Shown in pieces: positions 1,475-31,802 of a stretch of DNA of 64,000 nucleotides. The stretch is from Psilocybe cubensis (lineage: Eukaryota), in assembly GCA_017499595.2 (NCBI GenBank), contig CM039003.1, forward strand, positions 3,224,001 to 3,288,000, written 5' to 3'. The notes beneath the pieces were generated by a model. That model made no database searches. It was not told the origin of the DNA and saw only the letters and a program-made list of their open reading frames with translations. Position 1 is the first letter of the stretch, and each line of letters opens with the position of its first letter. A program made the position numbers and the translations under genes.

Positions 1475-1493
1475 CACTGCGGGCGCCGACCGC

Positions 1494-5918: not shown

Positions 5919-6019
5919 ACTTGGCGCAGCGGCGAGGATGTGGGAGGTAGATGTGAGAGGGGGACAGCATGCAGAAACACTGCAGCACATCGGTTGAGTA
6001 CACATCCAATCACAATACA

Positions 6020-9434: not shown

Positions 9435-11443
9435 TCATTGAACACGATGACCGGTAGCATAGAGCGTAGTTTGACTCGTCAAGTGCGCTGAGTGTGTAAC
9501 TCTGATTTCGCTGTCATTCTGGACTTTGCTTCGGAGTTCTAGCACCTAAAAAGGGGGTCAAAACCACAATAAGTTACGGTTTGAAGATCACTTAACCTCC
9601 TCGCAAATCCTCCTTGCTCACAACTCTATAATGGTATCATTTAAGTATGCCCTGTACCAAACACGCATTACCTTTGAGGTATTTCTAATGCCTGACTTTC
9701 AGACCTGATCCCACTAGCTACTCGCAGACATTAAAACCACGTAAAGTTATATACACATTATGAGTGCGCGTAACTACAAATGCTGGCTACAACTCTAAAT
9801 TTTCTAAATTTCCCTCATTTGCGTTGAGGAGCCCGTAATATTGCGCCTTCGAAGTCAAGAAAGCGAACAACTAAGGTAGACATTGCTATTAGATATAAAA
9901 GTTGAGGCCAGATGACGAATTCTTACAGCAAAAAGATATGGTGCCCAGTTAGCGTAAGTGCATGCCATGACAAAAGCAATGAAGGGACCATTGGTTCTGG
10001 CATAGTGAAGGAGCGTATTTGCAGGCTGTGTTTGAGTTTCACCGACGCCAACAAAGGGCTGGCTCCGCTTTTCCCACAGATAGATGAAGCCATTAGAAGA
10101 TGCTGCAATACAGACTTTGCGACTCTCCGCCATGGTTACTGCAATCGCCTGTGTCATGTGAGCCTCTGTGAACATGTTTGAGCGTCAGAAAGCATAAGAT
10201 ACGGCAAAAGATCAAACCTTTTGGACTTGAGGTAAGGGTCTGCAGAACGTAATTATTGGCTACGTCAAAGATATGTACCTTATTAGTGTGGCTACCGCAC
10301 ACCGACAGTTTCGTGCCTTCAATGAAACGGCACTGCTTTATGAAGTATTTGTGGGTGGTCACGGAGTCCCCAACGGCTAGGGTCTGGAGAGGAGACATAT
10401 CAGGAGTTTGGTAAACATCAAAATTGCCGTTGTTGAGATTGTTGACGATGATAACAGTCTGGTCGCTCGAAATCGCAGCAGATCCGCTACATGAGCTTAT
10501 CAGTCGAATATAAGGTAAAATATGTTAATATGCGTACATCCCACTGGCGAGTTTTTTGGTCCAGAGCACTTCGCCATTGGAAGCGTCCCGACAACAACTA
10601 GCAGAATTAAGAACAGTTAGAACAGTTGAACAGCGTGGTTAATTGATATTACGTTGATAAACATACACGTCACCATTCTCTAGTCCGAAGGACAGCAACT
10701 TTTCATTTGTTGACCCGAAGAAGAGGACCGACGTCGGAATACCAGGTCGGTTACTGGGAGCTTCCCAGACGAGATTCGCTGAGCCAGCTACAGGCAATAA
10801 ATAAATGGTACAGAAGAAACCAGGAATAACCCTTACCGACTGCATCAACAGAATACATCTTAACAGCTCCGGAATGACTGGAAGCAATCAGCCTGCCGTT
10901 TATCTTATCAAATACGAGGTTCTCCACGATGTCATTTGGGGTGAACAGCTGGATTACGGTTCCTCTCTCCGTGAAAGGCTACGAGAGAGAATTAGTGACT
11001 CGCTAGGATATCCTCTGATTGGCACACCTTAACAGAACGAGAGTCCATTAAAAACATGCTCATACCACCAAAAACATTCCCGACGCATAATACGGTTGAG
11101 GGCTCCCTCGAAGGTAATTCGGTATACGCCCACGCTAGGCAACTAACTTGCCCCCACTGCTTGTTCTCGAGGACTTGTTCAGTCCGGAAAGTTTCCGTGT
11201 TCCATATAAAAACCTTGTCGCGGTCACCTATTTTGTTGCATCAGATTCTCGTTCCAATAGTGAAAAGCAAAGAAATAGTATACCTGCAGCGACCAAAAAT
11301 TTTCCATTGCTCGAGAAGAGCAAGTGATCAACGTGTTCAATCCCTGGGTTCTTCAACTCCTTCGCAAGGACGAAAGAGCTATTCTGTTTCAACGGTTAAA
11401 GTAAATATTCTACATTTCAAATGTCACGACGTACCAAGTTCAT
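9435..11443 (-). CDS. Multi-exon WD40-repeat protein with C-terminal hydrophobic segment (element core)
   Basis: Spliced reading gives HLLFSSNGKFLVAAGDRDKVFIWNTET..WGQVSCLAW, ..VCGSHTNKVHIFDV.., ..IAASSNGFIYLWEK. The 3' end is uncertain. Confidence 0.7.
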
Positions 11444-12310
11444 GATGTATAAGTAGGTATAAGTAGACAGATAGGATAGCACTGTGGTGTACGGGCAAAT
11501 GTGGCAAAATGTTTGATTTGTGGGGTGAAGGTACTTTTATTCAAAGCCTGCCGTGTCTTGTCTTTAAGATTGAGTACGTCGTGTTGCCTTTCAGCTCACC
11601 GGAGATATGCCTAGCGCTGGATCCGCCTTTCGACACAAGCGGGTCATCAACGAGACGACAGCGTGTTTGTTTCGTTTATTCTCTCACCCGGGATCCCTTT
11701 CACTATCACTATACAATCCGAGCTTTGTTATTTTTCAGTTATGTTTGGGTGGGATGCTTTAGCAGACTTCAGTTTCTCTCACTCTACTAGAAGAAGTAAT
11801 CTAACTACAGGAGTCGCTGAAACTACGTATTTTTTACAGACTGTCGGGTCGTGGTGGAGGAAGAGCGAACCGTGCGAAAATGCTTGAACGAGAATATTAT
11901 AGTGCACAGATTTCCATGCCGCTTCGGCAACTCGCCGAAGCGGCATGGAAATCAACACGGTATATCAATGCTGGCGCGCGACCGGACCACCTTTCCGACC
12001 TTCTTTGTTCATCTCCTCGTCATGGGGAAACATCGTCTTCCTCGATGAAAGAGTTCTTTCTGTATAATTTGTAATTGTACCCTTTCTGAATCAATAGACC
12101 TAATAGATCAGTGTGAAAGCAATCAAGCAGTCCTCCGCAAAAGCCGTTTGACGCGTAAAACACGCCCACAGCGACTTGATAATGCCTGTGTGCTATCGAC
12201 TGTGCGTATATTTCAAGCCCCTCGCCATCCTACCCTTCTCATATTATCAATTCACCACCAACCTTTCTTAGACGCTCTTTTCTGCCTCCTTTCAACTTAC
12301 TCGTACGACC

Positions 12311-13232
12311 ATGGAGAACACTACTCGTCAAGCTTCGTCATCAGGTTCCCTGGTGGAACCTGTCCCCATGGCCGTCTCCGAACCCTATATCGGATTTCAC
12401 CACCCTATGGTAACATCGCATATCAACTTTACACCAGTCTCTCGTTCTGCTCCTCCTGTTCCCAAAACAGCCATGAGGATTAATTGGGAACCAAGGAGGT
12501 CTTCCGCTGATTTACCTGACGATAACGACGACCCCTCACTTGCCCCTGCACCTGCTAACCCTTCACAGTCAACTTCCTCGTCTGCCAACTCTCCGAACCC
12601 AGACCCTCCGAACCCTGCTGCGACGGCAGGGCCGTCGCAAACCACTTTACCCGCTCAAGGTGTCGCTACCGCAGGGCCCTCGTCTGCGCCAGTAGGCACT
12701 TCAAAAGTCATCATTATCCGGAAGCCCCCAGGTGAACCCGGTCGCCCAGGATCGGGTGGTTTTAATTTGGAAGATGTACTTGTGGGCGAGCACGACTGGG
12801 CCTTATCGGACGTTGAAACCCTGCAGGTAAGTTTATTTCGTTCGTCCTATATGTCTTTTCTTTACTCTATCACACAGGATTGGCTTCGCAGAGAGGCGAC
12901 CAAGACTCTCCGGCTCGATGCTAGTTATCGGTCGCAAAACCCGAGACTGATTGAGAGAATATGCAACAAGGTGTGTTCTGGTTTCAGTTCTGCTCAACTT
13001 ATCTCATGTTTTGCAGGCTATGCGTCCCGAGCACTGGCCTGTTTTGGCTAATTACGACAACTGTTGGCCTGTCAAGAGTGCCCTGAAATTGATCCTCAAA
13101 TACAAATCTGAAGCCTCGCGACGGGTAGAAGGGCGGAAAATGGCTGTGCGCGTTCGTAAAGCTATCAATAACCAAGAGGGCTCGCATGAATCGTCTAGCG
13201 AGGGCGGCAGTGGTAGCGATGAAGAGGCCTGA
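12311..13232 (+). CDS. Hypothetical protein with KPPGEPGRPGSGGFNL motif and C-terminal helical domain (element core)
   Basis: ORFs 12311..13051 and 12951..13232 are linked by GT-AG introns. Disordered N-terminus followed by a compact Trp-containing domain (..NYDNCWPVKSALKLILKY). Confidence 0.7.
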
Positions 13233-13861
13233 ATTCCCTCCCCCCAACTCTATACCATTGTGCCCTGGCTTGTTATACCTGTCCTTCCTTTATTTGTAAT
13301 GGTCTCTCCTCTCTACTCTTTTTTTCACGTTCATTTCCACATGCACTATTCATGTCCGACTCTAATCCACGTTCCTTTCCTCCTGCATCTGTTATTGCAT
13401 ACTATTCGGGTTTGAAACTCGTTGACATTGCTTTTCTTTACCCCGTCGCTCGTTTCCTGTACAACCTTTCTTCCCATACCATTATCAAATGTCTTAATGT
13501 GGAAATCCCTATGTCTCAATTTTAAAGTCATAGTCGCTCACTGTGAGGATGCACATCGTCTCCGAAAGTTTAATGGAAGTTTTCTGTCAGAAGACAAATT
13601 AGACATGAGCTATGATCCGCTTCCGAGCCCATTTTGACAAGTAAGTCTTGAACACATCGAAACCCAAGCTTGATTCTAACTTATCTAGACACGTTTGAAC
13701 ACGCCGGCCGAACTTCAATAACTTATTGTATCTGCCATAACGTTACACTGTGAGTACAACTGTTGTGGAGATAAGATTAGGTAACTACAAGGTAACTAAA
13801 CTATCCAGGGTCGCTCGAAAGTCACAGGATAAAAGTTGCGATTCTCCCTTCCCCACGACTT

Positions 13862-14416
13862 TTGTCGTCTGCTACCATCTACAAAACTATGGAATCGGGA
13901 GACGGATATTGCGCCAGAAACCACTATCACTTCCCGGACACACAGCGGCAGCAATTGCGGCAATTTCATGTCATCACATCACCCGCTCAATCTGTACCAA
14001 CCTATTCCCATCTACCTTTTCCAGACGGCGATGGGCACCCTAAATGCCCCAGTTGCACGAAGTCCATGAATAATGCAAATCGAAACCCCCCGTATAACCA
14101 ACGCTTTACTTATCGATCACACGTATCACTCGCAAATAATGCAAACCGAAGTCCTTTGCCATACAATCAGGTCTCACTCACTCGGCCACCTGAGCTACTC
14201 GACGTCACTCTTCCAAGTGATTATCTGAGTATTTTGGTCCGAGTTCAACATCCCACAATTGACCCCGGGGCTTCCTCCACTAATCGATCGAACTTCGAGC
14301 CTCATCCGTGCCCGTATATTTGCCAACTTTGTCCCTACCTTCAACAGATCATGTATCAAGAAGGCCCTCCCGAAGATATAGTCGGGATACAAGCAGTACG
14401 TTCAGCTTCCGTATAG
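13862..14416 (+). CDS. Possible small Cys/His-containing hypothetical protein
   Basis: 184-aa ORF with CPSC and CPYICQLC; no family recognised. Confidence 0.35.
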   Translation: MSSATIYKTMESGDGYCARNHYHFPDTQRQQLRQFHVITSPAQSVPTYSHLPFPDGDGHPKCPSCTKSMNNANRNPPYNQRFTYRSHVSLANNANRSPLPYNQVSLTRPPELLDVTLPSDYLSILVRVQHPTIDPGASSTNRSNFEPHPCPYICQLCPYLQQIMYQEGPPEDIVGIQAVRSASV

Positions 14417-14967
14417 TTCGCATTGCCTTGTACTTATCAAGAATTTCCCCACAGCGATCACCGATACCCCCTGAGAAAATATCTACCTATTCGGAATTGA
14501 CACCCCATCTCCAATATATGCAACAACATCAACGTCAACGATCGGAGGAAAGATAATCTCGAGCAAGGGTATTAAGTTCCTGCGCCATGCTTCCTGTTCT
14601 AATAATTCATGAGTTTGTAACAATGTCAGAGTCACTGGTTCTATTTAATTTTACCGCGACTTTCTATGAACGAATGCAACCATAAGGGTTTATGTGAAAA
14701 AGTCTCCCCATAAGTTGCACCTTCAACTGAAAATAATTCTGTATTGCAGGCAACTTACTTTATTTGAATGTCAGGTCGCGTAGAAGGCGCGTCAGGCCCG
14801 CATTAGGGTCACGGACTGTCTCGTGAAGATCTTAATGAATAGTTTAAAGTCCCGAACGTCTATCTCTTTGTTTCGTATGTCCTTTGTGTTTTAAACCTCG
14901 AAAGTGTTTAAATAGGCTAAGATCTAATGTGAAGCCAACTCCCACCTCGTTCCACCCATCCACCATC

Positions 14968-15539
14968 ATGGGCATTTTATGCTTCGCTGTCACAACGCTT
15001 GTCGTAGGCACCATGTTGGTCGGCATAGGCATTTTAACACACAATGGTTTATGGTTCTTTCTCGCGCTTTTTTCACCCATGACGTTGCTCGCTGTGTTCA
15101 CTTTTTACGATTATTACACGGTTGTCTACAACCCTTCTCCACACCTTTTAAACCTCAATAATTTGAGCTCACGCCCTGCCCCATTATTGCGCTCCGGACT
15201 GCGAAGCGAACGTCGTTATATCGTTTCCATGCCAGTATCTGTCAATACAGTCCGCAGCCTCCTCGACGGTTCTTTCGCTAATTCATATACGCCGACAACT
15301 GCCAATATTCTGGAAGCAATCGACCATATTTGGTCGCAAAACGACATAAACATCATGGAGGTATGCAGTTTTTTTACGGCGTGCTACCTTTGAATCTTAA
15401 AGTTCTTGCAGAGAATCCATGGACTTCAAAACCCTTGTCGATATCGCTTCCTCCATCGATCGGGCCAAAATATATATCTCGTTACAGACGTCGACCCGTA
15501 CGGTCCTTCCGCCGAGACCTCGCGATTGGGTCCTCGTGA
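14968..15539 (+). CDS. Small membrane protein, paralog A
   Basis: Hydrophobic N-terminus; ILEAIDHIWSQNDINIME, intron, then PWTSKPLSI..YISRYRRRP; paralogous to the gene at 31305. Confidence 0.55.
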
Positions 15540-16160
15540 ATTGGAATATTACTAGGACAGGACTCCAACCTGTTCGTATATTTTAACTGCTTGTTCACCG
15601 ATTCTGTTCTGATTACCTTGTAGTGCGGAATGTGCAAAGGCGTTCCAGCTTGGCAGTAGCATCTCGGTTATTCGTATATCTTCGCACCCAAGTTCCACTC
15701 ATGCTTCTATTTTTTTTCTTCTTTCCTCAGTCTCATCTCGATACTTAGTCCCGCAATAATGTTTTTCTTGTAAATCATATTTAGTTTTGGCTCTATGAAT
15801 ACTTAGTGCAATAATTTTCCGTTGTGTAAAGTTCACTGCATACGCAAATAGACATCCATTCCTAGGTCGGTTTAATTGTTTTTGCGCGCGACGGAACCCA
15901 TGGCCAACGCGCGCGATGTTTTGATGCCGATCAAGACTAGAAAGAGCGTTCAAACCTGGAGATGGCATGGAGATGGCCTGAGAAATAATGTTACTCGCTC
16001 AGTGACGAAAGAAAATACGCTCATAACAAGAATTAAAGGTAAATTGATCGGAAAACAAACTTTCAAGCTACTGATAACATGGACCACGAAACCGCTATAT
16101 TAGTCTAAGTAGAAGAATTTTGATATGTAACAATTATGAAAAGTTGCGCGCCACGAAATG

Positions 16161-19100
16161 TTAGGTATAGATTGCAGGATTCACCTCGTCGTCCTCCCCT
16201 GGAAATGGTTGAGCGGCCTGGGGGTCTAGCAATCGTAGTTCAAGGTCGGATAAAGTATTCAACCAGACCGGATTGTAGTAGTTTATGGGGAGTCTAGTTG
16301 GGGCAGGCCTCGTACTGTAATTTTGCCCTTGCCTTAACCGCTGACGGACATCAGGTTGACCTCCGGGGCGCCTACCACCATATGCAGTCGTGGCTGGCAA
16401 AGCATTATCGGCATCCGTCACGGTGTTCAGTAGCCGTGGATTTCGCCAATATAATATCCTAACGCTTCGGATTCCGCGCTCTTCAGAATCGCTCTCGTCG
16501 GAACTCATCCCATCATCTCCTAGCGTCACAATGGTCCGCGCATGATTTGGCATGTTCGCCTGTTGAGCACTATCAACACGGGTCTCATACAGCTGCAAAG
16601 TAAAGGCCGTTAGAGCAAGGAATTCGGACTAACTTGATAGCTTACTTTAGTCTGACGACGACGAACCCGCTTAAACCGGTCGCGTCCCTCTTTCTCCATC
16701 AACAGTCTATTTCCCGCATCCTGTTCAGTTTCATCCCCCCGTGGCATGGCGTTGGACATGTAATCCCTTAGAGTAGTGAGACGCCGAAGGAAACATTGTT
16801 CAATTTCTTCCTCTTGCCCCCGATATTCTGGATATTGTCGCACTAAAGAATCTGCAAAGAGGTTTGCCATGTGACGGTTCCATTGTGTGTTGACTCTGTC
16901 AAAATACAACTGGAAAGGTGTCATCGTCGGAGGATCTCGTCGTCGGCGCTCTAAACGATCCACTTCAACCTCGTCGGCGATGTGAATATTATCAAGATCG
17001 GAGTAGATTTGGCTGTCACGATGATCTGCAGGGAGATCGAGACATTTGCGCAGATGTAGGCGCACTGCTTGCTAAAAATTCTGGGCTTAAGTAAAGCATT
17101 GATATATAGGTAGTAAAAACTATACCGTCAACTGTGTGCGGTCAATTGTACGAGGCCTAGCTGGAGCCTTCTCTTTGAAGGGAGACTTGACTTTCGTAGG
17201 CGTCTGACGTACTCTGGGTCCTCTTCCGTTTGCCAAATCATCCCGCAAGCCGTTGACACTGGCAGTCATAGTTTGTATACATTCAATCAGCATGTTATCG
17301 GTATTGGGTCGTGGCGAAGGGTGCTGATCATCGTCTGAAGGCATATTGGGAGCCGTAACGGTCGAAGTCGGATGCCTTGGCGTGTTGGCCATCGGAGGAG
17401 CCGGCTGAGCAGTGGCAGGAGATTTTGCGCGCTGGGCACTGGCACCAGAGCGTTCTGCGTGCCGAGCTTGATAGGCAGCGAGTTGAGGATTTGTACTGGC
17501 ACCAGAGCGATTTGCATGACGCACTTGATAGGCAGCGAGTTGAGGATTTGCAGTTGAGGAGTTGGGAGGGACAGATGTGTTAGACGTTCGCACTTCGGAG
17601 GCCGAATGTCTTGGCGTGGTTGGCGTGGTAGGCATCGCTGGAACTGTACGATCAACGACAGGACTGACAGTAGGGCGGGTCGCATGACGAGCTTGATAGG
17701 CAGCACGGTAAGGATCATTCACCGCAGAGGTAGCAGAGGTAGGCGCTATGGTAGAGTTTGAAGCGGGAAGGCGCCCTAGCCGTTGCATAGCAGCGGCAAA
17801 GTATCGCTCTGTTGCTGACTGACCTGTAGGAGGGATAGGGGTCGCGCGGTTAGAATCCCTGCGTCTTTGAGATGGTGGAATTGTGGTATATCTTGTAGGA
17901 AAAAAACCCGGAATTATATATCGCCGAGGTGATGCTGATCTTGGAACAGGTCTTTGGTGTGTTGTCCCATCTTCCATATGTTCGTCGTCTGAGTCCAGCG
18001 GGGGTGACGAATTGGGAGCTCGAGGCGAATTCCGGAGCGGAGAACTATCTACCATTTCGTCATCTTCATCCCTCGAGGCTTCATTTTGAGGAGGATTTGA
18101 CGGTGGAACAGCTGATTGTCCGCGCTGGGCAATCTAAGATACCTCGTTAGGATCAACAAGATCACCACATACATTATTGCGTACTCGTGAATGTATAGAA
18201 AACCCGGCATTGCGCTTGTTGATCCCAATCTAGAAGACATCGAGGTAAATTATTAGGTACTACGTACGAATGGATTGTTTAACATACCAGCCTCCGCCGG
18301 GCATCCAACCTCCTAATTTCCGTTGGTTCATAATCATCCTCAGTATTGTGAGTTCTGTTCTTCATAACTGAATTAATGCGAGCCTGCAAAACCTTGGAGG
18401 TGTGATCAGAATCGAAGATTGACAAGGAGGGGAACAGATTTACTTCATTCTTAATTCGTTCGTTCTTTAATATGTCCTCCAACGCACTTGTCGTGTTACC
18501 GAATTCGGTATTGCTTGATTCCAGCTCGTTCAAGCGACCTTGATTTGCCTGACATTGTTGTGCCAGATTGGAAACTTGGAGACGCAGGCTGGACTAATAA
18601 TGATACCTTATCAGTCGGATTTGTTGAGGCATAGGCTAAACTAGAATCCTACCACCGTATCCTCGTAAGTGGCCTTCATTTGATTCATCTCGGCCTGTGC
18701 TCTGTATCAGCAACAATGCCATGATTAAAGATTGACAGACAAACCATTCGGTTAGTTTGCTCTGCTTTCAGAGCGTTCTCGGCGTCCGCTGATTTTTGTT
18801 GATGGAGATCCATTTGGGACTTGAGATCGCGTTCGAGCGCATGATACTGTTTCTGCGACTCCTCTCGCTGGTTTTGTAATTGTGCTGTAAGGCGGGTTAT
18901 CTCGTTTGACGCAACACGCAACCGTTCATTGAGGCCCGTGATAGTTTGTTGATCTTCCACACGTGTCGTGTTTGCGCGCTCTAGCTGTTGTTGGAGAGCA
19001 TTGATTTGGTCCTGTGCGTGTGCTGCACTTTGCGATGTGTTGAGATTTGCAATTGTCGAATTCGCGTCCCGGAGCTGTTGCTGAAGAGAGTTAATTTGTT

Positions 19101-21057
19101 CCTGTGCAAGGGCCGCCGTATTTTGTGAGGCACTTAAACTTTCAATCCTCGAATTTGCTGCCTGGAGCTGCTGCTGTAACGTTGCTGCTGCACGTTGCGA
19201 TGCGTTGAGATTTTCAATTGTCGAATTCGCGTCCCGGAGCTGTTGCTGAAGAGAGTTAATTTGTTCCTGTGCAAGGGCCGCCGTATTTTGTGAGGCACTT
19301 AAATCTTCAATCCTCGAATTTGCTTGCTGGAGCTGCTGCTGTAACGTTGCTGCTGCACGTTGCGATGCGTTGAGATTTTCAATTGTCGAATTCGCGTCCC
19401 GGAGCTGTTGCTGAAGAGAGCTAATTTGTTCCTGTGCAAGGGCCGCTGTATTTTGTGAGGCACTTAAATCTTCAATCCTCGAATTTGCTTGCTGGAGCTG
19501 CCGCTGTAACGTACTGACTTCGCTGGATTTCTCTTGCTGCAGACGAGCGATGTCGTTTTCTAAATCTGAGATTTGTGCGAAGAGTTGTTGACCTCGCGAA
19601 GCAACCGCAGCTTCGAGATCGGCATTCGTTTTCTCGTGACGCTCCTGAGCTTCAAGACGCTGGCGGTCGTATGCTTTAGATAAGGACTCTGCACGCCGAA
19701 GTTTGATCAACGCTGACGAGAGGTCGCCTTGTTGAGTTTTAACAGTTTCTTCAAGCCCTTTGGAGCTCTCCTTCTCCGTCCGCATTGCCTTCGACAGCTT
19801 GGTATACTGCGAACGTACAGCCTCTACCTCCTTTTTGCTCCTTTCTGCTTTCTTTTCAGCATTTTTGATGGCATTCTTCGACTTAGTTAGCTGTACGATG
19901 GTGGTAAATACGCAAATCTTGCAACATAGGAAATAAATTAACATACTTCCGCTCGTTCATCATCAATGATTTTCTTGAGCACCTCTTCCCTCTGCTTGAT
20001 CTAAAAAAGCAATGAATACATAAATGACAAGAAAAGTAGATTTTGGGTAACGTGCCTGTTGCTTGCTCAGCTCTGCGATGTCGACGTCTTTCTGTTCGAT
20101 GACTTGGACTTTGGTGGTATGGTCTTCCGGTGCAGCTCGTCGTTTCTTCGCCTTAGACTGGTTAGACTGGTTCGGATCACTTCTAGTGAAATTGAACAAA
20201 TTTCCAGACAAAACGGGTATAAAAAACCGTGGAAATGTAGAGGTGCTACTGGGATTTGACGACGTAGGTAGTGTAGGATCAATGTCCATAGACGTTTCAG
20301 GGTTCGGAGGAGGATTAGTGTTGGCGGAAGACTCGTTCTGTCGGAAATGTCCAGGAAAAAGCACGTCGGAAGACCCAATCCGTGGGATATGTCCAGCGGA
20401 TGGCCGAGAGACACTATTCGCAATGGAGGATCCTTGGGCACCCCGAACATCTGTAGCAAACCGGAAAGGCGCCTGATCGATCGAACTAGCGCCGTTGGTG
20501 GGCTGAGAAACAGAGGGAGCAACACGATCTGGGACGGAAGATCCTTGGGCTCCCTGGTCATCTGCAGCAAGCCGGGGTGGTAAGAGAGTAACCGCATTTA
20601 CAGGAGCTTGATTGGTCAAACTAGCGCCATTGCTGGGCTGAGAAACAGAGGGAGCAACACGATTTGGGACTGAAGATCCTTGGGCTCCCTGGTCATCTGC
20701 AGCAAGCCGGGGTGGTAAGAGAATAACCGCATTTACAGGAACCTGATTGGTCAAACTAGCGCCATTGGTGGGCTGAGAAACAGAGGGAGCAATGGAGGCT
20801 GTACGTGCACCGTGTTCATCTGCGGCAGGTCCGGGTGGAGGAATTGGAAAAGAAACCGCTACATTAGAAGGCGTAGCGTTGGACAAAGTAGCTCCAGCTC
20901 CTCCTTGTTCTACTTGTTCTAGACGTTCCGTCGGGTAATCAGGTGATGTGTCCATTGAGGAGGGTTCTTGATCAGTGGAAGATCCAGTTGCCGAAGGAGT
21001 AAGTAAGGCCACGATCCTCTCCTTGAGGGGCAACGTTTCCCGTCGGGTGGACGACAT
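16161..21057 (-). CDS. Large multi-exon protein: low-complexity N-terminus, repeat-expanded coiled coil, Pro-rich linker, C-terminal LGDDGMSSDES/YWRNP domain (element core)
   Basis: Successive minus-strand ORFs (19963..21129, 18685..19944, 18279..18533, 17120..18055, 16610..17065, 16161..16598) are separated by short GT-AG introns. Could be two genes. Confidence 0.7.
19037..19512 (-). repeat. 165-bp coding tandem repeat (55 aa, ~3 copies)
   Basis: aattgtcgaattcgcgtcccggagc recurs at 19051, 19216 and 19381. Confidence 0.95.
20485..20792 (-). repeat. 135-bp coding tandem repeat (45 aa, ~2.3 copies)
   Basis: ggctgagaaacagagggagc recurs at 20501, 20636 and 20771. Confidence 0.9.
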
Positions 21058-21261
21058 GGGTATGATACTGAGGATGCCTGCCTTCCCGAGGTCACCTTTT
21101 GTACACTCAGATGGGGGCTCTTTATTCAAAAACTCTTTGTGAATACCGGGAATAAGGAAACAAAGAGGGACTCACCTAAAAGATAGCAGCCAAACCGTAT
21201 TCGCGCCTCATACTTTCCTCCCTAATTACCGCCACATCCACCTCCATACTTTTTCGCCGAC

Positions 21262-21827
21262 ATGGTATCATCGTTGATGACCTTCCGGTCGACTACAAGG
21301 GTGAGATGAAATCGAAGTTTATATGAATAACGACTCACTTCGACCAAGGATCTCCATATGACCCTTAATGCCAGATATTATGCGGTCGATGCAAACCGTG
21401 CTGTAACGAAGAAAATACACACTCTTGCAAACGCGAGCGGGAGGAGTCCTAGACTGGACTTATTGATGGGCGGGAAATCGCTGCAGCCACACATACATGA
21501 CGGCGTGGTGTCGATCGTTAACAAAGGGCGGACTACACGCTTTCATATCTTCGTTAAGAATCACAAGTTTCTGCCTCGCAACAAATCTCTTAGACGCTGG
21601 GGAAATGCACGATGGAGAGGGGATGTCGTCGTGTTCCGCAAAGGTCTAAGTCTGGACCTCGTCAATTTCACCATACGGGATGGGAAGTTGGCTGACCACG
21701 CAGTGAAGAGGTGAGCTGGCGATACTGAGAGTATAGAAGAACGCTAACAGTACCTAGGTTTGTGGAAACTGTTCGCCAACAGCCAAGGTTCCGCATCCCA
21801 AAGGACCTCTCCTTCACAATGCCCTGA
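21262..21827 (+). CDS. Small basic hypothetical protein with WRGDVVVFR motif (element core)
   Basis: Three exons around ORF 21358..21714 with GT-AG introns, ending ..KDLSFTMP*. Confidence 0.65.
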
Positions 21828-22427
21828 GCGACTTCTGCTCTATCTGAGCGTCTTCTGCTCTGTTTCCTGTTTTTTCTGTTTCCTGTCTTATTTTGGCGGT
21901 TCTCCATCGTTCCGACTTTCGTTCGTTTGTAAACTAATTTGTACACATATTTACGATCTACTGTAAATATATTTACTACTACTTACGCACTGAGCGACAT
22001 GGTGTGTTATGGGTGGAAAGAGAACGAAACCGTGAGAAAATGCCGACCACGCCATGATGAACCCCCGGAATTTTCAAGCCGCGTTGCCGAGGAGAATACC
22101 GCACGCGATAATCGGCTTGAGCGGCTTGAAATTCCGAGGGGTACATATTGAGCTACTCAACATATTCTCACGCTTTCTCTTTTCCTCAACGTTAACGACA
22201 GCCTTGAGTAGCAGAACCATAGGTACGTTTTTAAACAATGTTGGTATGAAGTTAGCTAGAGGTGATGTACGTGAATAACAAAAAAAACAAAAATACATGA
22301 GTTGAACGAGTCTCCACCTACGAGCACAATAAGAAAATATGATGCGATCGTGTCTTAATAACGACCAGCTGATGACCACACAGCACAAGCAGTGTAGCGC
22401 AGACCAGAGTGTTTCGCGAAAATCGCA

Positions 22428-25149
22428 ATGAAGAAGGTATGTCATGATTCCTTGATATCTTAATCCGTTTAGGTTAGTAACATTATTACAGATAGATCCC
22501 AGAATCCGCCAGTTCCTGGACACCGAAGCTCAAGTTGACGACGAAATTTCTGAGGAAGACGAACAGACGGGATCCGGAGAAATAGATAGAGAAGGTGAAT
22601 ATTATACTTCAAACACATTTACCCTACTAATATAACCCTTGCCATTGAGATGGATTCATCGACGATGATACACCCCCGGATGTTGGGCATTCCGTTCTAC
22701 CGACCCAGTTATCAGTTCATAGGCATACCGAGGGAGCATTAGAGCGCTTGATTTCGCGCATCGAGTCCAGAATCAATGCCGCGGGAGATGGGGGATTCGC
22801 CATTCCTGAAGATCCAGACGATACACTCCATGACAATGGTTTGTTGTACATACCTAGGGCGGATGATTATCCACTGTGGCGGGTTGAATGTAGAGTGCGT
22901 ACCCTACCGTTATTGACACTGGGCGTTCTAAACTGAATGGATCTTCGCAGGTTGGTATTGAAGAACAGGCTGTGATGTCTCTGCTCAGCACAGTCTCGGA
23001 AGTACATCAGGTTCGTTCCGCATTCACTCGAGGATCAACACAGGGCAGTATCTATATCGAATGTAAAATGAACCAAGCCCTCGTCGACCTTCTTCTACGG
23101 ACACCAGGTGTACTGCGTAACGGCTTGGGTATCAAACGACAGCTCATCGACTCTTCAGAGTATAGTCAAGTGCTTGGGATGAGGGATGGTCCCGTGGACG
23201 TCGGTGCATGGGTAGTCATCAAGAAAGGCTTGTACAAGGGAGACGTTGGCGTGGTTTCACAAAAAAGTTTTCAACATGCCCGTATTCTCCTCATTCCTCG
23301 GCTACATACGACCCCACAGAACCCCCTCAAGCGAAAATCATCGACTGTTAAGCCGGCTGCTAAGCTCTTCGATCCGGATCACTTTCGACAGCTTTTCCCA
23401 ACCGACGTGCAGAGCCGTGGGCCTGATTGCTACTGCTTTCGCGATATGGACTTCGAACAAGGGCTTCTGGCCCAAAATTTGGACCACCGTTCATTCACAG
23501 TTAACGTCAAGGACATACCCCATGACTTCTACACCATGTTTAGAATGAGCCAACACCCAGCAGTTAATCGCTCGCATATGCCACGCCCGCGCGAATGGAC
23601 TTTGAAAGAAGGCGACGCGGTTCTCATTTGCAGCACCCCTTCAACCTCTACGTCGTTTTTTGCCCCAGCTATCTTGAAGGTTATGGATACCTACTATGCG
23701 GAAGTCCTCGAAATAGGGACACACGGTGTACCTCTAGCCGACAACCCAACAAAACGTGTGCCGTGGCAAGAAATCAGGAAGGATGTTAAAATCGGACAAC
23801 ATGTTTGTGTACGGGGTGGACATCATACTGGCAAGACAGGCTGGGTAGTTGCTCTCAAAGATGATCGAGTTCATTTTGTCAGCAAGAAGTTTGAAGGTGA
23901 AATACCTACTTATTTTAGGGATGGTGACGAGGTCATTGAAGTGAGGTCTCCATTTTGTTATTCGTTCTACTTTTGCAACTCTATTGGCTTACTTATCTCT
24001 TGACAGTCAACAGAGGTTTTTGTCAACTTTGTAGACATTGCAAAGGAGCCCGTCGTGCTGCACCACAAGCACGAGCCAGAACAAACTGCCATAATCCCTT
24101 ATGTGCGCCAGCCAGAATCTGGTCCCCTTCCCAAGACGCCTCCACATCCATGGTGTGGAGTAAAAGTGAAGATATCTAAGCAGCACCATCCTCGAAAAGG
24201 CGAATACGGAGTAATTCAGGATGTCAAGGAAAATCTCGATGACAATACTATAACGTTGCACATGCAGTTGACGCGATACGACCCGAATGCCCCATTTCAC
24301 AGAATATCAGTCCGTTACGACGACGTCGTTGAATTTGCGTAAGCGCATTCCATCTCACACAGGTCATGCAACACTCATTATTTTCAACGTAGATCTTCTC
24401 TTGAGCTCGTCCTGTTCCTTGATCCCGGTGAGGGTCATATTCGACCTACCCCAACGCAAACTTTGTCTACGCCGCAACCCGAGCAAGGTCATGATACATC
24501 CGCCCATCACCCTTATCTGATGGAGAGGCCGTCTGGTAGTGCAACGCCCCTTCCGACACCAGCACCAAATAATTTGTCTTCTCCACCTAGTCCAGCTTGG
24601 GACCCCTCTTCGAGAACTCCGTTATCTGATTCCGTGGCGTCTGATCCATTGTGGATGCCTCCAGCACCACCCCCACATGTCCTCTTGAACCCAAAACTCG
24701 TGGGAGTTAAACTGAATGCTGTAGTTGACGGCGGAGATTTTTCTAAGCAGCTAATTGCAGTGTCTATCGAGCTTCATGGCAACGAGGTTGTTCTCCGACA
24801 TAAAAAATATCACACATGGATTTCATTAGAACCCCGTTGGGTCACCCCTAAATACCCTCATCCAATTCACGACAACAACCTTCTCGTCGTCATAAAAGGA
24901 GATCACAGCGGCAAATACGTTCGTCGCATTCATCACCGACTAGATCAGCTAACCAAGAAAATCAACATTATTCTATCCGTTGTGGCCAGGACCGTCGGCT
25001 CGCCTGATTCCTTAACTGGCGAGCAATTGGAACTCGATCCGCAGTTTCTTTGTACTGTTCCCGAAACAAAGAAAGAAAGAGAATTGAACTGGCGTGTCAT
25101 GAATACAACGCGAGCTATGCATAATCGCGGACCTAGTCAAAATCAGTAG
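22428..25149 (+). CDS. Divergent Spt5/NusG-like transcription elongation factor paralog (acidic N-term, NGN, multiple KOW, short CTR-like segment)
   Basis: QFLDTEAQVDDEISEEDE (Spt5 N-term); LWRVECRVGIEEQAV..RSAFTRGSTQGSIYIEC (NGN); VGAWVVIKKGLYKGDVGVV..LLIPRL (KOW1); KIGQHVCVRGGHHTGKTGWVV (KOW); SGSATP..SPAWDPSSRTP; LVVIKGDHSGKY (C-terminal KOW). Confidence 0.85.
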
Positions 25150-25404
25150 TGCAATGTAACTAGTCCATCGTGTACCAACTTTTTGCGGATTTTATGTCTC
25201 TTAATTTGCGTACGTATTTCTTGGGTGTTTTTTCGGTGTTTTTTTTGTGTAGCGACATGTGCCAAATTTAATAAAGGCAAAGATGTTTATCATCAAGTAC
25301 ATGCGCAAAGGCCCAAATGGGCGTGTCGTTAAACAAAGGCAAGGTATATACATATAACACACGACGCGATACGGGCAGTTAGTTTTCCTCCACCAATTCT
25401 ACTC

Positions 25405-27126
25405 ATGTCGAACCGCAGGACAAGAAAAACAATCCACGATGCCTTGAGGAACAGGCAGAGTCGCACCACCAATATCAATCATCATCAAGATGCGTCACCT
25501 GCGCCAGGGCGTAATTCTGCAGAAACCTTGGACGTAAGTTTCGATTTGGTGCTTAGAGCGATGACTGACTGAGATTATCTCTCAGCTCGACGAGCTGCGG
25601 CCCTTTGGAAACGCGTTGACCCAAAGCGAGGTGGGTTACGGCTGCCTGTATATTTTCTGCATGATTTGGCAAGATGTTAACGCGAATGGCAGGATCTGAA
25701 TATCATTTCAATCCGCAATACTAATCGCCGAAGCCACAGAAATCTCCATTTACTCCCAGACAAAGCCAATCCTAGTCCCCGACGCCAAAGAAGCGTCCAT
25801 GTGATGCCAGACAGAGCCAGGACGCCCCAAATTGCTTTGGAGCACTCCGACATCAGCCTTGTATTTTAATTTCGATTGTCTTTCATACGGCAAAACCTGA
25901 CACGGTTCTTAGCCCGATGATGCACCTATGGATAGTATCAGACCAGTAAGCATACATTGTTGTTGTCCTTAAACGATCTCACATTTTTCGCGCCACAACC
26001 AGGATGTTCTTTCTGCTGTCGTCCCCGAGATGGTTAACCATACCCGCGAACCTGACGGAAATGTAAATCATGTCCGCATCCGTGAGCTGGAGGTAGAACT
26101 AGTAAAATGTCAAGAGCAGCTAGCGAGAGCTTCGGATCGAAACAATGAATTGGAATCAACGCTGATAGAAAATCAACGCACATTACAGAATCTTTCTGAC
26201 ACAATTACTGTAGTAAGTTGTATTTGTCCTAGTTCAACATCATACCTTCCTAACATCTGGGAACATTTGAAAGCATAAGAATAATGAAGATAACTTGCAA
26301 AAGCTGAATGACTCTTTGGGTGACAAACTGTCGGAACGGGAGAAAACAAACGGCGAACTTGAGTCGGTTCGTCATTATATTTAACATATTACCGTATAAA
26401 GTTGACCAAGTTGACGGACTACCTTTGCAGAGGAACAAAGTGTTAACGAGTAGGGCAGAACTATTGACTACAAGAGTAAAGGAATTCAAGAACGAAAACA
26501 CGCGTCTTCAAAAGGTAAGGTTTCCATCTTGTCATTCAGGCAGTGTGCTACTAATATCAAGACTGCAGTCAATCGATAACATGGAGGCGAAAGTCGAAGA
26601 ACGGGAATATCTTGACATTTATATAAAGGTGTGTTTGATTCTTAAATTCCAGTTGTATCCTTACACAAGCGTTCAAACTTTAGAATCTCCGCCATTGTTA
26701 TGAGAAATGTCAATCTGACTTGAAAAAATCGCATGCAGTGAGTCATGTCGAAATATTTTATGTGCTCTCTGAATGTTTCATAGGAGTCAGCCGAGCTGCA
26801 GCGTCAAGTTGAAGCACTTCGCAAGTTATGCGATGTCGTCGTCCAAAATACGACTTGCCCAATATGCACTTGCCACATAGATATGCCGGTAATGTATGTT
26901 TTTCCAGCGAATCATTGCAATACCGAAGATAATGCTCATTACTAATATCTAAAACAGGTTGACTTGCGGTCACTTTTTTTGTTCGAGCTGCCTTGAAGCA
27001 TGGGACAATAAGAAGGGATGGAAGGGGGGCTGCCCATATTGCCGCATGGACATTAGCCGAAGGATTACTGCACTGCCAGTTTTCAACCAAATTCTGGACG
27101 CGGTTCCAGTCGAATACCGATCTTAA
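25405..27126 (+). CDS. Multi-exon coiled-coil protein with C-terminal C3HC4 RING finger (putative E3 ligase)
   Basis: Spliced last exons read TCPICTCHIDMPVMLTCGHFFCSSCLEAW..GGCPYCR; preceded by heptad-rich exons (IRELEVELVKCQEQLARASDRNNELE). Confidence 0.8.
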
Positions 27127-27254
27127 CGATTTTTATATATTGTGAAATGGATATCATGCGTGCTTCTCCTTCCCGAGAAGCTATTTCTTAATACTCCCGA
27201 TCTCTGTGACTATAAAGTAGCATCAATTTTGGTACTAGACGTTATCATACCATC

Positions 27255-30200
27255 ATGCCCCCTGCAATAGGCGATCGACTCTGCATATGTAAAGTCCACG
27301 GGTGCTACGATAATGTGGACCCAGGAACTAATCGAAGGGGGAAATTACTTAAACCCAGGGACTTCAGAGCACATCAGCGACGCCAACAAGAAGAAGACCT
27401 AAAGCAACAGCAACGCGCCTTGGATGTACAATCAAAAACTCTCGCTAAGCATGATCAAGCCATTGAAGAAGCGTTGAGTCGTCTATCACTGTCGGACCCT
27501 CAATCAATTCCATCGTTCACATCCCAATTATCTGATTCCGATTCTCGCTTCGAAACGAAAAAGAGAGTGGCAGCTCAGCTTGGTGGCCTGTTGGATGAAA
27601 CAGACGTACACAAACGAGGGATAGAAGCTCTGCAAGTTAATCCCGGACCTCTCACCGACTCTGCATTACTTGGAGGACTGGATAAGTGCTCCTCAGCATA
27701 TGGATTCATCGAAAGATCTGCGACAGTGCTGGCCACAGCCAAACATTCGGCGATCCGAAAGGATCCTTCTATCAAAACACTCATCGATAATGCGCAAATG
27801 CAGCTCGGCCTACTTCAGCATGATCTCAAGCGAATCGAAACTCTCTATAGGAAGGAGTTTGGGAAACGCGAAACAGTTGCCGCCTCGACTCCTATGTACA
27901 ATTCAGGTAACCGAAAGTTCATTCGATATGGTTCTAGGCTAATATTTATGGAAAAGGACGACATTTTAAGCCCATCCTGGAATCCGCAACTACCATCTTG
28001 CAGTTGGTTGCATTCATGGTCGTGTCGGTCCAAGTTATTTTTGGCGTTCCTCGACGGGGTTGCCATTGGATTTTTCAAATTTCCGAATTTATCATTGAAC
28101 AAACAGCCTTCAGTGCCTTGGGCTCTTCCAGTCACTCTACCCTTCCGAACAAAATCAAACTTCTCCTCTCCAAATTCCCTCGCGACGTTCGTACGGCGAC
28201 GAGCTACTTCAATATCGATGCGGAAAGCACTGTTTATGCAGCATGCCCCAAGTGTCACGAAATTTATCCGCCAAAATTGGAGTCTGGCGTTCCCATATAC
28301 CCAGAGAAGTGTCGTGCACGTAGAAGGCCTCACAAGCAAGGTGGCCCTGTCAGGTCCTGCAGAGAATTGCTAGTTCGCCCAAAACAGTTTGGGAAAGCCA
28401 CCATTAACGCTCCAATAAAGCCATACATTGCCTTCAGCTTCCATGACTGGATGGCCAATCTCTTATCACGCCGCAATTATGAGAAGACGATGGATTCAGC
28501 ATGGGATAGAATGCAAGAAAACGAAGGCGATATCGAGGATATTTTCCAGGCGACATGCATCAAAAACTTCAAAGGACACGACAAAAGGACGCATTTCGGC
28601 AAAATCGGCGACAAGGACTCCGGGAGATACTTATTTTCTCTTGGATTCGATTTCTTCAACCCTCTGAGGAACTTGGCAGCTGGGAAAAAGGTGTCAATTG
28701 GCGTCATCGCGCTGATATGTCTCAATCTTCCTATCGATATCCGCTACAAACCTGAGAATATATTCCTAGCGGGTATTATCCCTGGCCCTTCTGAGCCAAG
28801 TCTGGACGCCCTTAACCCGTACTTGCGGCCTTTGGTCGACGCACTACTGCTATTCTGGGATGGAGTTCGCTTTTCAAAGACGGCTCTTTACGAGCTTGGG
28901 CGATGTATATATTGCGCTATCATTGCTATTATCGCCGATCTTCCTGCTGCTCGAAAAATCGGAGGTTTTTCCTCACATAGTCACGAATTCTTCTGTTCAG
29001 TTTGTACTTGCAGCAAAACCAAGAACACTTACAACGACATCGACTATACGACCTGGACATGGCGCACCAACGAGTCCTGTAGAAATCGTTCGGAAAAATA
29101 TCGCAATGCACAAACTCAGGACCTGGCGGATAGATCCTTTGACTTGTCAGGACTTCGCTCCTCGGAGTTGCTTCGTTTGCCGTACTACGACGCAACCAAG
29201 CATCTTCCCATAGATCCAATGCACAACCTATTTTTGGGTTTGGTAAAGGAACACTTCCAAAATATCTTGGGATGCAAGAAGATTCCGATGGGTGGTCTTC
29301 CCGAATCTGCGGCCCATGCAGGCCGTCTATTTGCTCACGATGCCAATAATTTGGACCCCGATCGCTTCAACGTCCAGCAAAAAGCGAGCATCAGACGCTT
29401 GGAAGGATGGCTTAAGGAGCCCTTTCTCCATGGATCGGACCTACAGTCAACGATTGACAAACATGCCAAACATTGGGCTGGGAAGGGATGCCACCTGGTC
29501 TCCTTGATCTACATTGGCAGAGGACTTGGATGCATCCCGAGCACTGTTACCGAGAACGGGAGGGATTCCCGTGATCCTGATAAGAGGTATCACAAGCCGG
29601 AGCTGGCAAAACTAATAGTGGAATGGGTTCGTTGCACGCCTTTTCTCAAGATCATAAATCTGATCAATTTTACCGTTGTCTTCGCTTTTTCCTTAGCGAT
29701 CAAGACAGCCAATAGTACTACCGGCCTCCGTCACCTCTCCTGGACTAGCCGGCAGGCAGGGATATATATTGACCTCGCAGGAAATGGACGAATTGCGACG
29801 AGATATCAGCGCGATAGTGCAACCATCATGGGCAACCACTATTCCTATATCAATCTCTTCCTCTGGACCGAAGTTAAAGTCGGATCAATGGCGAGCGGCG
29901 GGATCTGTTTACCTCCCAATTACTCTCATACGCTTATGGTCCTCAGATGGGACAGACACTACCAGCCAGGAACGTCGAGATCTCCTCAACATGACGATGG
30001 AGTTATTCCAAGCCGTCTCCGTCATCACTTCGCGGACAACCTCTGCTGCACATGAAAGGTTGTATCTTGGGCATATGCTCACGTACCGTCAAAATTTGGC
30101 ACGTTTATTTCCTGACTACAATTGCCATCCCAATCACCACATGGCAATGCATCTTGGGGAATTCCTTGCGGCGTATGGGCCTGTTCATGGATGGTGGACG

Positions 30201-31004
30201 TTCCCTTTCGAGCGTATGATTGGGACACTGCAACAAATACATACTAATTACCATCCTGGTAAGCCGTCAATCATAGAACTCTCATGCTCTACCTAACAAT
30301 ACGTGATAGGCGAGTATGAGGCTACGATTGGAGAATCGTGGCATAGAAGAAGCAATCTTAGGGCACTGTTTTCCAAGGTCACCTGCCCTCCTATCATTGC
30401 CAAGTGCGCTTCAATGTTCGAGAGCATCGTCCAACCTCAGAATCAAAATTTCCTTGCAAACTACGCTACGGACAAGGTGCAGGCGGTTGGAACCGACGAT
30501 CAAGATACAGATATCATCCTTGACAATAACCTGTATCGCGACAGACTGGAGGTTGAACTTCCCGACAACATTCTCAATGCATTTACAAACTTCTTCCAAG
30601 GCAGCGCTGAGCTGGTATCTACTCGTCATATTCGTGCAAACTTAATAAATCGATATACATCGGGCCGCATTTCATACACCAGTTCTTCCATCCATGAAGG
30701 AAACAGTCAGATTCTGACACCCTCGGGTCCGTATTGCATCCAGAACATTGTAGTGTTCCGCAAGCCACTTCTATACGACGATGTCTGGCTTGTCGCAAAA
30801 CCATTTCGCGCTGCAAAAATCAAGGTCGACCCCTATATGCGGTATCAACATCTTAGAGCAAAAATATGGAGCAACGAATTGGAGGAATTCATTGAGGTCA
30901 TTCCCTTGTCTATGGTTGATACTCATTTTTCCAAGTGCGTCATTCAATGGGAAGGGAAAGAAGTTGCCGTTTGTGTAAGTTTATCTCGAGTTGTATCCGT
31001 TTAA
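27255..31004 (+). CDS. CACTA/EnSpm Tnp2 (Transposase_21-like) DDE transposase, apparently intact
   Basis: Motifs FDFFNP, CLNLPIDIRYKPENIFLAGIIPGP, DLPAARK, FCSVC, IDPMHNLFLG, HHMAMHL, GPVHGWWTFPFERMIG. Three GT-AG introns join the four ORFs in frame. Confidence 0.93.
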
Positions 31005-31304
31005 TAGATTTGTATGTACGATTACGATTTTACGACCTTTACGTGAGATCAGATCTACCCATAACTTACACTGCAACAGCTCGCTTTAATTCACTCACTG
31101 GTCGCGTAGGAGGCGCGTCAGACTCGCATTTGAGTAACGGCCAGTTCCGTGGGGTACTGACCCGCTTAAACGGCCCGAATCGTTTACCTCTTTGTTTCTA
31201 ATGAATCGTGTTATTTAGGCCTTTGTTCTTTATGTTAAAAGCCTCAAAGACGCTTAAAAGGACCAACGCGAAGTCAACCTCCAACTCATTCCACCCCTAC
31301 CACC

Positions 31305-31802
31305 ATGCTTTCTCCCATGCTATTTCTCATAGTCAAGCTATACGACACTTTTATCTTTTTGATATCTGTCCTCGTTACTTTATTCTTGGTTCAACTTGTT
31401 CACGAGGAATATCATAAATGGTTCGACTATTCACCGGATTCCTCTCCAACCTTGCGTTCTGCACAACATGTCCAACGTCGATCCACAATCTCGAGGCACC
31501 TATCTATCCCTACCTTCCACATCCACCTCCGTATTGCTGTTCAGCCGGCAACAAGGAATATTTTAGAGGCACGGGACACTGTTATCTGGTCGCAGAATGA
31601 GCTGAATATCATGGGGGTGCGTACGTTGATTAAATGTGTATTATCATCTCTGAATCCTAGCTTATAGAGGGTTCATGGAGTTCGAAACCCCTATCGATAT
31701 ATCTTTGTTCACCGATCTGTCAGCGGCCGAATTATATATCTCTTTACCGGCGTCGACCCGAACAGCCCTTCTCCCCAGACCTCGGGCTCACATTACCTTG
31801 AA
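31305..31802 (+). CDS. Small membrane protein, paralog B
   Basis: Hydrophobic N-terminus; NILEARDTVIWSQNELNIMG, intron, then SWSSKPLSI..YISLYRRRP; matches paralog A. Confidence 0.55.

Follow-up and report, generated by a model that had tools for sequence, protein, structure and literature searches.

A complete 38.9-kb CACTA/EnSpm transposon of Psilocybe cubensis and the gene families that accompany its transposase

The usual view is that a transposase, perhaps with one helper, is all that a eukaryotic cut-and-paste transposon requires. Whether a larger gene set can belong to such an element is the question raised by a stretch of fungal DNA from Psilocybe cubensis (64,000 nucleotides; GenBank assembly GCA_017499595.2, contig CM039003.1, positions 3,224,001 to 3,288,000 of the forward strand; hereafter the window), in which a Tnp2 transposase gene lies among genes for WD40, RING, Spt5-like, coiled-coil and small basic proteins between positions 9435 and 31802. 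An original prediction, made from the letters of the window, had read these genes as a selected module linked to a mobile element rather than as random capture, with suppression of host defence or assembly of the transpososome as conceivable roles. The evidence was drawn from the window sequence, together with protein databases, public reads and contigs from metagenomes. The region is the coding core of a single complete CACTA/EnSpm-type DNA transposon (1475-40414), and the best explanation overall, which we hold to be likely, is that accessory gene families are kept alongside Tnp2 in this 38.9-kb element, with the Spt5-like and WD40 genes under selection. Both CACTA elements and fungal transposons that have captured epigenetic genes are already known; here a CACTA element appears to retain a multi-gene set over deep divergence, including a diverged copy of Spt5 under purifying selection.

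A single complete CACTA/EnSpm-type element

The outer ends of the element read CACTG at 1475 and CAGTG finishing at 40414, and are flanked by a 3-bp target duplication, TAT at 1472-1474 and again at 40415-40417 (a 3-nt match is expected by chance once in 64 cases). The 1.66-kb terminal arms are 100% complementary over 1529 nt when left and right are compared, and 97.8% over 1669 nt. A 17-nt subterminal motif has 14 matches in the window against 0.10 expected; all lie in the two arms, at most 360 nt from the ends, where they cluster at the start of each arm in both orientations. The element and its repeats are as follows.

1475..40414, no strand assigned: whole CACTA/EnSpm-type element, 38,940 bp, with ends and 3-bp duplication read directly
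1475..3138, plus strand: left terminal inverted repeat, with a subterminal 17-nt motif cluster at 1493-1830 and a two-exon open reading frame (ORF) at about 2361-2925
38753..40414, minus strand: right terminal inverted repeat, with a 17-nt motif cluster at 40059-40396
8590..9407, no strand assigned: left-hand inner inverted-repeat blocks, A at 8590-8748 and B at 9290-9407
33123..34215, no strand assigned: right-hand inner inverted-repeat blocks, B at 33123-33270 and A at 34013-34215

The small two-exon ORF (MAALISQVV...) is present in each terminal arm, at 2361-2925 and in mirror image at about 38964-39528, as identical inverted copies; it has no Pfam match.

The transposase matched Transposase_21 (PF02992) with 48.2 bits against a cut-off of 28.6, the match to DUF4218 being weak, and 606 homologs were found. 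A Tnp2/Transposase_21 DDE transposase, termini of the form CACT(A/G)...(C/T)AGTG, a 3-bp duplication and subterminal repeat clusters together place the element in CACTA/EnSpm. Some near relatives of the transposase bear the Plavaka Pfam domain, to which the window transposase is itself a weak match; assignment to Plavaka was rejected, PF18759 reaching 13.9 bits, under its cut-off of 26.3, and the ends being CACTG..CAGTG. Section 3.2.2 of PMC12730594 gives the Plavaka termini as TGT..ACA (Plavaka A) or CATCA..TGATG (Plavaka B), with a 2-3 bp duplication. A Plavaka-type CATCA end at 34221-34225, beside inner block A, was also rejected, being without a left partner. In a public read run from another organism (run X10, organism D), a contig with a word depth of 475 is about 83% identical to the transposase core (28634-28788), which points to a related abundant element there; the same run also has low-depth pieces of the present element at 99-100%.

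In maize, the CACTA (EnSpm) transposon En/Spm encodes TnpD (Tnp2/Transposase_21) and TnpA, which reads the subterminal repeats. The window element is like En/Spm and CACTA elements in its Tnp2, its CACT(A/G) ends, its 3-bp duplication, its clustered subterminal repeats and the presence of a second protein gene adjoining the transposase gene. It is unlike En/Spm in its size (39 kb, with about eleven genes), in its 1.66-kb inverted-repeat ends (100% over 1529 nt) and in its accessory set, which has no similarity to TnpA; no TnpA family was found in the Pfam search.

The inner blocks pair as 8590-8748 with 34013-34215 and as 9290-9407 with 33123-33270. They bracket the gene core with unrelated sequence between them, and on the left side block A has a tandem duplicate (8278-8757); an inversion, or an older element nested here, may have left these blocks behind. 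A tandem pair of 100-nt units with 99% identity is found at 34259-34461, just beyond inner block A, where the public contigs end. Within the core, a direct repeat (14758-15772 and 31084-32062, 68-73% identity) duplicates a small gene with a hydrophobic N-terminus; the two proteins match at E 2e-10 and share the motif ILEA.D.IWSQN..NIM. The locus could accordingly be read as a transposon island or nest, in which the accessory genes came from other, separately mobile elements or are trapped host genes, linked to Tnp2 by pile-up. The inner inverted repeats (8590-9407 and 33123-34215) and the internal diverged duplication speak for an island, whereas the enclosure of all genes by one CACTG end pair with one TAT duplication speaks against it.

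Core genes and their counterparts beside diverged transposases

Gene models were obtained by splice-aware search and compared with homologs, all introns being predicted. The following genes were modelled in the core.

9787..11443, minus strand: WD40 beta-propeller gene, about 394 aa, from the mapping of public model P0318 and Pfam ANAPC4_WD40
12311..13232, plus strand: gene '12311', of no known family, about 291 aa, transcribed divergently from the WD40 gene
13889..14556, plus strand: ORF of no known family, a weak model with no relatives found
14968..15759, plus strand: small gene with a hydrophobic N-terminus, paralog of the fifth co-oriented gene (direct repeat)
16161..18055, minus strand: gene 'MSSDES', about 570 aa, with the motif GDDGMSSDESD...WRNP, no known family
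18279..21057, minus strand: coiled-coil gene of about 852 aa, containing tandem repeats of 135 nt and 165 nt
21262..21714, plus strand: small basic protein gene, 134 aa in public model P0274
22394..25149, plus strand: Spt5-like gene, with acidic N-terminus, NGN, KOWs and one TPAWDPSSRTP-type motif; start uncertain
25405..27126, plus strand: gene for a coiled coil with a C-terminal C3HC4 RING, about 402 aa, 10 exons
27255..31004, plus strand: Tnp2/Transposase_21 transposase, about 1192 aa, exons 27255-27906, 27957-29626, 29697-30258 and 30310-31004
31305..32038, plus strand: fifth co-oriented small gene, a weak model

The protein types that had been named from the sequence were recovered by Pfam: stop-to-stop ORFs gave Transposase_21 with DUF4218, Spt5-NGN with KOW, a beta-propeller and coiled coils, and exons or public models brought C3HC4 RING and ANAPC4_WD40 above their cut-offs. 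For the WD40 gene, ANAPC4_WD40 reached 27.6 bits (cut-off 22.9), and many propeller profiles stayed under their cut-offs; the idea that the WD40 protein ends in a C-terminal membrane anchor was rejected, the hydrophobicity peak being only 1.37. In the RING gene the last exon matched zf-C3HC4_3 (29.5 bits, cut-off 27) and zf-C3HC4 (27.5 bits, cut-off 21), the first Cys pair of the finger being encoded by the preceding exon; the ubiquitin-ligase role suggested by this sequence is putative. No Pfam match was found for the outer ORFs of the element. The small basic protein, MSSDES and '12311' had no Pfam, PDB-sequence or named protein-atlas match, and PDB sequence searches with the MSSDES and '12311' exons gave 0 matches at E 1. 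In the protein atlas, the small basic protein (0.91) and the MSSDES C-terminus (0.98) fell into unnamed Basidiomycota clusters only, with DUF8263 on 10% of one cluster of the MSSDES C-terminus. The AlphaFold2 (AF2) model of the small basic protein had a pLDDT (predicted local distance difference test) of 44.8, and its predicted complex with the NGN part of the Spt5-like protein had an uninformative score of 0.00.

Three core genes agree with public models, namely P0318 (WD40), P0274 (small basic) and P0271/P0273 (Spt5-like). P0274 and P0271/P0273 are 100% identical to the window exons; the public models give the small basic and Spt5-like genes either fused (P0273) or separate (P0271 plus P0274). 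P0318 aligns to the WD40 gene in six pieces, of which five agree at 98-100% and one spans an intron and a stretch skipped by the public model. Alignments of the transposase with its homologs (1194-1364 aa) show a change of frame between 27920 and 27962; a predicted 50-nt intron at 27907-27956 (GTAACC..AAG, with a CTAAT branch-like site), supported by these alignments, joins the two frames, and therefore no frameshift is needed.

Given the predicted introns, all core genes are readable without frameshifts, as had been claimed for them, and three match public models. The described packing was likewise found, with 255 bp between the Spt5-like stop (25149) and the RING ATG (25405), and 128 bp between the RING stop (27126) and the transposase ATG (27255). 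So were the two divergent pairs of starts, the WD40 ATG at 11443 (minus strand) with the '12311' ATG at 12311 (plus strand), and the coiled-coil ATG at 21057 (minus strand) with the small-protein ATG at 21262 (plus strand); public models use the same start sites, P0318 beginning MNLNSS and P0274 beginning MVSSLM. Five co-oriented genes had been placed between 21262 and 31802: the small basic, Spt5-like, RING, transposase and fifth genes are all on the plus strand, the last being modelled to about 32038 and not to 31802.

A scan of metagenome contigs with the transposase alignment gave 80 loci, which were searched using the window ORFs, the Spt5-like family and iterated hits; most are short, and 29 have at least 4 kb of flank on one side. 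Homologs of accessory genes were found for WD40 (8 loci), '12311' (7), MSSDES (5), Spt5-like (2) and the small protein (1). At least one accessory gene was present in 7 of the 29 flanked loci, that is, in 7 of 11 with a transposase identity of at least 35% and in 0 of 18 below it, and the transposases of accessory-bearing relatives are 35-50% identical to that of the window. The gene orders in these relatives were as follows.

L001: MSSDES, Tnp2, WD40 (minus) facing '12311' (plus)
L006: repeat-rich ORF set, MSSDES, Tnp2, '12311' (minus) facing WD40 (plus), Spt5-like
L005: small (minus) facing repeat-rich ORF set (plus), MSSDES, Tnp2, Spt5-like
L017, L020 and L021: '12311' (minus) facing WD40 (plus), several kb upstream of Tnp2

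MSSDES homologs lie directly upstream of Tnp2 in L001, L005, L006 and L007. The small basic protein homolog in L005 is 43-45% identical (E 1e-27), and for the Spt5-like genes of L005 and L006 Pfam confirmed KOW and gave a weak NGN. Thus at least five accessory families (WD40, '12311', MSSDES, small basic and Spt5-like) travel with the transposase beyond this copy. The gene set is conserved and the order is not; the stable units are the two divergent pairs and the adjacency of MSSDES followed by Tnp2, and in the window the block of small, coiled-coil and MSSDES genes is inverted relative to the transposase. Among gene models, P0292 from Gymnopilus has a Tnp2 transposase fused to a '12311' homolog, and is the sole model linking two window genes; other WD40 relatives were found in two Psilocybe species only. 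Neither the subterminal motif of the window (0/80) nor a counterpart of ORF 13889 was detected among the related loci. In L017, an 84%-identical inverted repeat (6734-6996 and 12719-12974) lies around the transposase gene, its right arm overlapping the end of the coding region.

L005 and L006 are 80% identical to each other and are therefore counted as one lineage. They differ by a 4.4-kb block with the WD40/'12311' pair; where L006 has this block, L005 has 436 bp instead. That this pair behaves as a discrete block, and that it lies at varying distances from the transposase and on either side of it, depending on the locus, is what an island would predict; the occurrence of the same families with transposases at 35-50% identity, and with 0 of 18 more distant ones, is not.

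Selection was estimated from dN/dS (the ratio of nonsynonymous to synonymous substitution rates) by the method of Nei and Gojobori; ORFs were taken from stop to stop and may include intron ends, which would push the values upward. Between L005 and L006, the transposase gave 0.27 for the core, 0.26 for the N-terminus and 0.40 for the C-terminus, and the Spt5-like gene gave 0.24 for the NGN exon, 0.27 for KOW, 0.33 for the N-terminal part and 0.41 for the C-terminal part. Among L017, L020 and L021 the values for WD40 were 0.22, 0.17 and 0.22. The Spt5-like and WD40 genes are thus under purifying selection as strong as that on the transposase. In the L005-L006 comparison, MSSDES gave 0.26 and 0.91 in its ORFs (0.51 when the two hit ORFs were pooled) and 0.50 in the upstream ORF, and the repeat-rich gene gave 0.63.

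These values bear on the possibility that the accessory genes are passive cargo, captured from the host and riding along without serving the element, their intactness reflecting youth or a host function. Gene capture of this kind has precedent in CACTA elements and fungal DNA transposons, including the TET/JBP captures described in PMC12730594: fungal Kyakuja, Zisupton, EnSpm and Plavaka elements carry TET/JBP dioxygenases, a cargo proposed there to aid escape from methylation silencing, and fungal EnSpm and Plavaka are placed in the same CMCT clade (Kojima, 2025). Those transposons, as presented in that paper, are like the window element in being cut-and-paste elements of Agaricomycetes with a retained chromatin or transcription gene of host origin; they are unlike it in their cargo, which in the window is an Spt5 paralog with several other genes, no TET/JBP domain having been found by Pfam. 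The terms Spt5, KOW, RING and WD40 have 0 occurrences in the main text of PMC12730594, the supplements of which (Data S1, Figure S2) could include related families. Among the papers listed by the literature searches, none joins Spt5 paralogs with CACTA/EnSpm, Plavaka, Kyakuja or Tnp2 transposons; titles retrieved for Spt5-like proteins and fungal transposons concerned plant epigenetics or microRNAs of brown algae.

Passive cargo would also fit the RING gene and ORF 13889, neither of which has a counterpart in relatives, and the identity of the copies within the species, from which no selection signal can therefore be drawn. It does not fit the retention of accessory genes down to 35% transposase identity, dN/dS values of 0.17-0.27 for Spt5-like and WD40, equal to those of the transposase, or the maintenance of local gene pairs despite rearrangement, and is considered unlikely.

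Copies within Psilocybe cubensis

An identical Spt5-like protein occurs under five P. cubensis accessions (KAH9476447, KAH9474229, KAH9476183, KAH9476157 and KAH9480904), the models of which differ in length alone (691, 811 and 942 aa). Essentially identical WD40 models occur under three (KAH9476187, KAH9476154 and KAH9480901), each 3-4 accession steps from one Spt5-like record. Of these records, three for Spt5-like and two for WD40 fall within the number range of one 3.05-Mb contig.

In public reads, 50% or more of the words sampled from 21250-31249 occur in 9 of the 14 runs listed. In two runs, single unbranched contigs span 9400-19079 and 20693-29399 and extend to about 8723 and 34288, with breaks at tandem or local repeats only. 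Run X13, presumed to be RNA, yielded no contig over 9400-29399. The word depth of the spanning contigs was 61.5 versus about 16 in run X1 and about 42 versus 21.6 in run X9, the comparison contigs being paralog-like and matching only small parts at 80-86%; this hints that the whole stretch was amplified as one unit, although word depth is not copy number. A multi-copy element, nearly identical within the species, is supported indirectly by these data and would imply recent movement. Unbranched contigs of uniform depth across 8723-34288 and equal accession spacing in three copies also argue against an island, which is judged quite improbable.

When run X9 was compared with the window over 9400-29399, C>T or G>A accounted for 44 of the 57 differing places; 30 of these differences were listed, and 23 of the 30 were at CpG, against a background of 24%. 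In at least one strain other than that of the window, the element is thus subject to decay at methylated CpG. The window copy is not CpG-depleted (observed/expected 1.0).

Several observations weigh against a complete transposon with a retained accessory set. A RING motif was found at 0 of the 80 related loci, and 4 of the 11 closer flanked loci had no accessory gene. Beyond P. cubensis, the linkage of Spt5-like to the transposase comes from the single lineage of L005 and L006, making two lineages overall, and there the link was made through other family members (E about 1e-15) and Pfam, the Spt5-like ORF of the window itself having no match. The coiled-coil gene of the window shares no sequence similarity with the repeat-rich ORFs of L005 and L006, which are therefore positional analogues at most. 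Element ends were not found for L001, L005, L006 and L017, so that accessory genes are placed inside the element for the window only. No transposase model 100% identical to that of the window was found in the public protein collection at the lengths searched, and transposase copy number is therefore inferred from contig continuity only. All introns are predicted, and the transposase depends on a weak, non-consensus one. Finally, that the element has undergone rearrangement or is composite is shown by its inner inverted repeats and by the paralogous segment of 1 kb within it.

Of the claim that the genes form a selected, element-linked set and not a random capture, the part concerning WD40, Spt5-like and the small basic protein is supported, and the support extends to two genes that the prediction did not name, '12311' and the gene at 16161-18055; the evidence is recurrence beside diverged Tnp2, several identical copies in the species and, for Spt5-like and WD40, purifying selection. 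It is not supported for the RING gene, which was found at none of the related loci, or for the coiled-coil gene, which has positional analogues only.

The Spt5-like protein, possible roles of the accessory set and flanking genes

A search with the Spt5-like exon gave 622 relatives at E <=0.001, of which 223 were at <=1e-10, in a library clustered at 50% identity. NGN was present in 20 of 25 long relatives and a transposase domain in 0 of 25. Named relatives from Agaricales were from Flammula, Pholiota, Panaeolus, Collybiopsis and Dendrothele. For the family member P0121, Pfam gave Spt5-NGN at 28.3 bits (cut-off 22.4) and KOW at 24.9 bits (cut-off 22.3). The AF2 model of the Spt5-like protein (pLDDT 86.6) had as its top PDB matches Spt5 chains in RNA polymerase II (Pol II) elongation complexes, with E 5.5e-16 and about 22% identity over more than 310 columns; it also fits the crystal structures of KOW1-linker (KOW1-L1 entry 4ytk, template modelling score 0.82) and KOW2-3. 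The motif TPAWDPSS(R/T)TP, which we take to resemble the C-terminal repeat (CTR) of fission-yeast Spt5, occurs once or twice each in 10 of 22 long family members. The Spt5-like protein had no Spt5_N match at E 0.001 and a single TPAW-type motif; the features of a canonical host Spt5 (a single essential gene, Spt5_N, five or more KOWs and a CTR array) were not found. Canonical Spt5 is the large subunit of DSIF and binds Spt4 and the clamp of Pol II. On account of the structural matches to Spt5 chains at about 22% identity and of the TPAWDPSS motif, the protein is a diverged, element-borne Spt5 paralog rather than the host factor.

A second Spt5-like family, 44% identical, is present at five loci on five P. 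cubensis contigs. Element-borne paralogs are labelled 'Transcription elongation factor SPT5' in public records (P0121, P0271, P0273, P0122 and P0280-P0284), with at least 10 such records in one species, in two families; labels of this kind on element-borne genes inflate host gene counts. A metagenome scan with a single Spt5-like exon gave 41 pattern matches, none of which was confirmed as a relative.

Specialised paralogs of NusG/Spt5 exist elsewhere: bacterial RfaH-type paralogs sit on horizontally acquired operons, and in plants the paralog SPT5L/KTF1 is specialised for silencing. The window protein is like them in being a second elongation-factor copy, of the same NGN-KOW fold, which would serve a subset of transcription units, and unlike them in being eukaryotic (in contrast to RfaH), transposon-borne and multi-copy. 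It may be a captured, diverged copy of the host Pol II elongation factor that has retained the NGN-KOW1-KOW2 architecture and a CTR-like motif. Riding on Pol II, such a protein could keep a long, CpG-methylation-targeted element transcribed, or could couple transposition to transcription. More specifically, our preferred guess is that at the element it would take the place of host Spt5 on Pol II, or compete with it there, such that long genes are expressed despite silencing; this is conceivable and somewhat doubtful. If the paralog does act on Pol II for the element, it would represent a new transposon route against silencing and a natural tool with which to study how Spt5 function specialises.

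An opposite, silencing-side role is also conceivable, in which the Spt5-like protein acts like plant SPT5L/KTF1 and recruits small-RNA or methylation machinery, as self-restraint by the element or as a defence co-opted by the host. The existence of silencing-specialised Spt5 paralogs in plants and the CpG-to-TpG pressure on the element in another strain would agree with it. Against it, the Spt5-like sequences that were read have no obvious GW/WG-rich Argonaute hook and only 1-2 TPAW motifs, and the gene, instead of having become fixed at one host locus, travels on the element and is multi-copy; we regard this role as very improbable.

For the other accessory proteins, the WD40 protein and, in this lineage, the RING protein could form a substrate-recognition and ubiquitin-ligase pair directed against a host factor. 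The strongest candidate for a TnpA-like DNA-binding helper that would read the subterminal repeats is MSSDES, because its position directly upstream of the transposase is usually kept. Taken at its broadest, the proposal would be that a giant CACTA lineage in gilled mushrooms carries its own Pol II elongation-factor paralog, a WD40 protein (with RING in Psilocybe) and helpers as a virus-like kit for host manipulation, which keeps a 39-kb methylation-targeted element transcribed and mobile, as a eukaryotic counterpart of the NusG paralogs of bacterial mobile elements. This broad form is speculative, and we think it rather unlikely to hold as a whole.

No tRNA genes were found in the window. Its right third, outside the element, contains genes for a ferric reductase, a glyoxal oxidase, RTA1, a GTP cyclohydrolase N-terminal domain and two GH11 xylanases with CBM1. 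The xylanase genes, which are host genes, form a 92%-identical inverted duplication (52047-53372 and 56188-57512), and a further direct repeat of 70% identity lies next to the pair (53924-55128 and 58565-59763).

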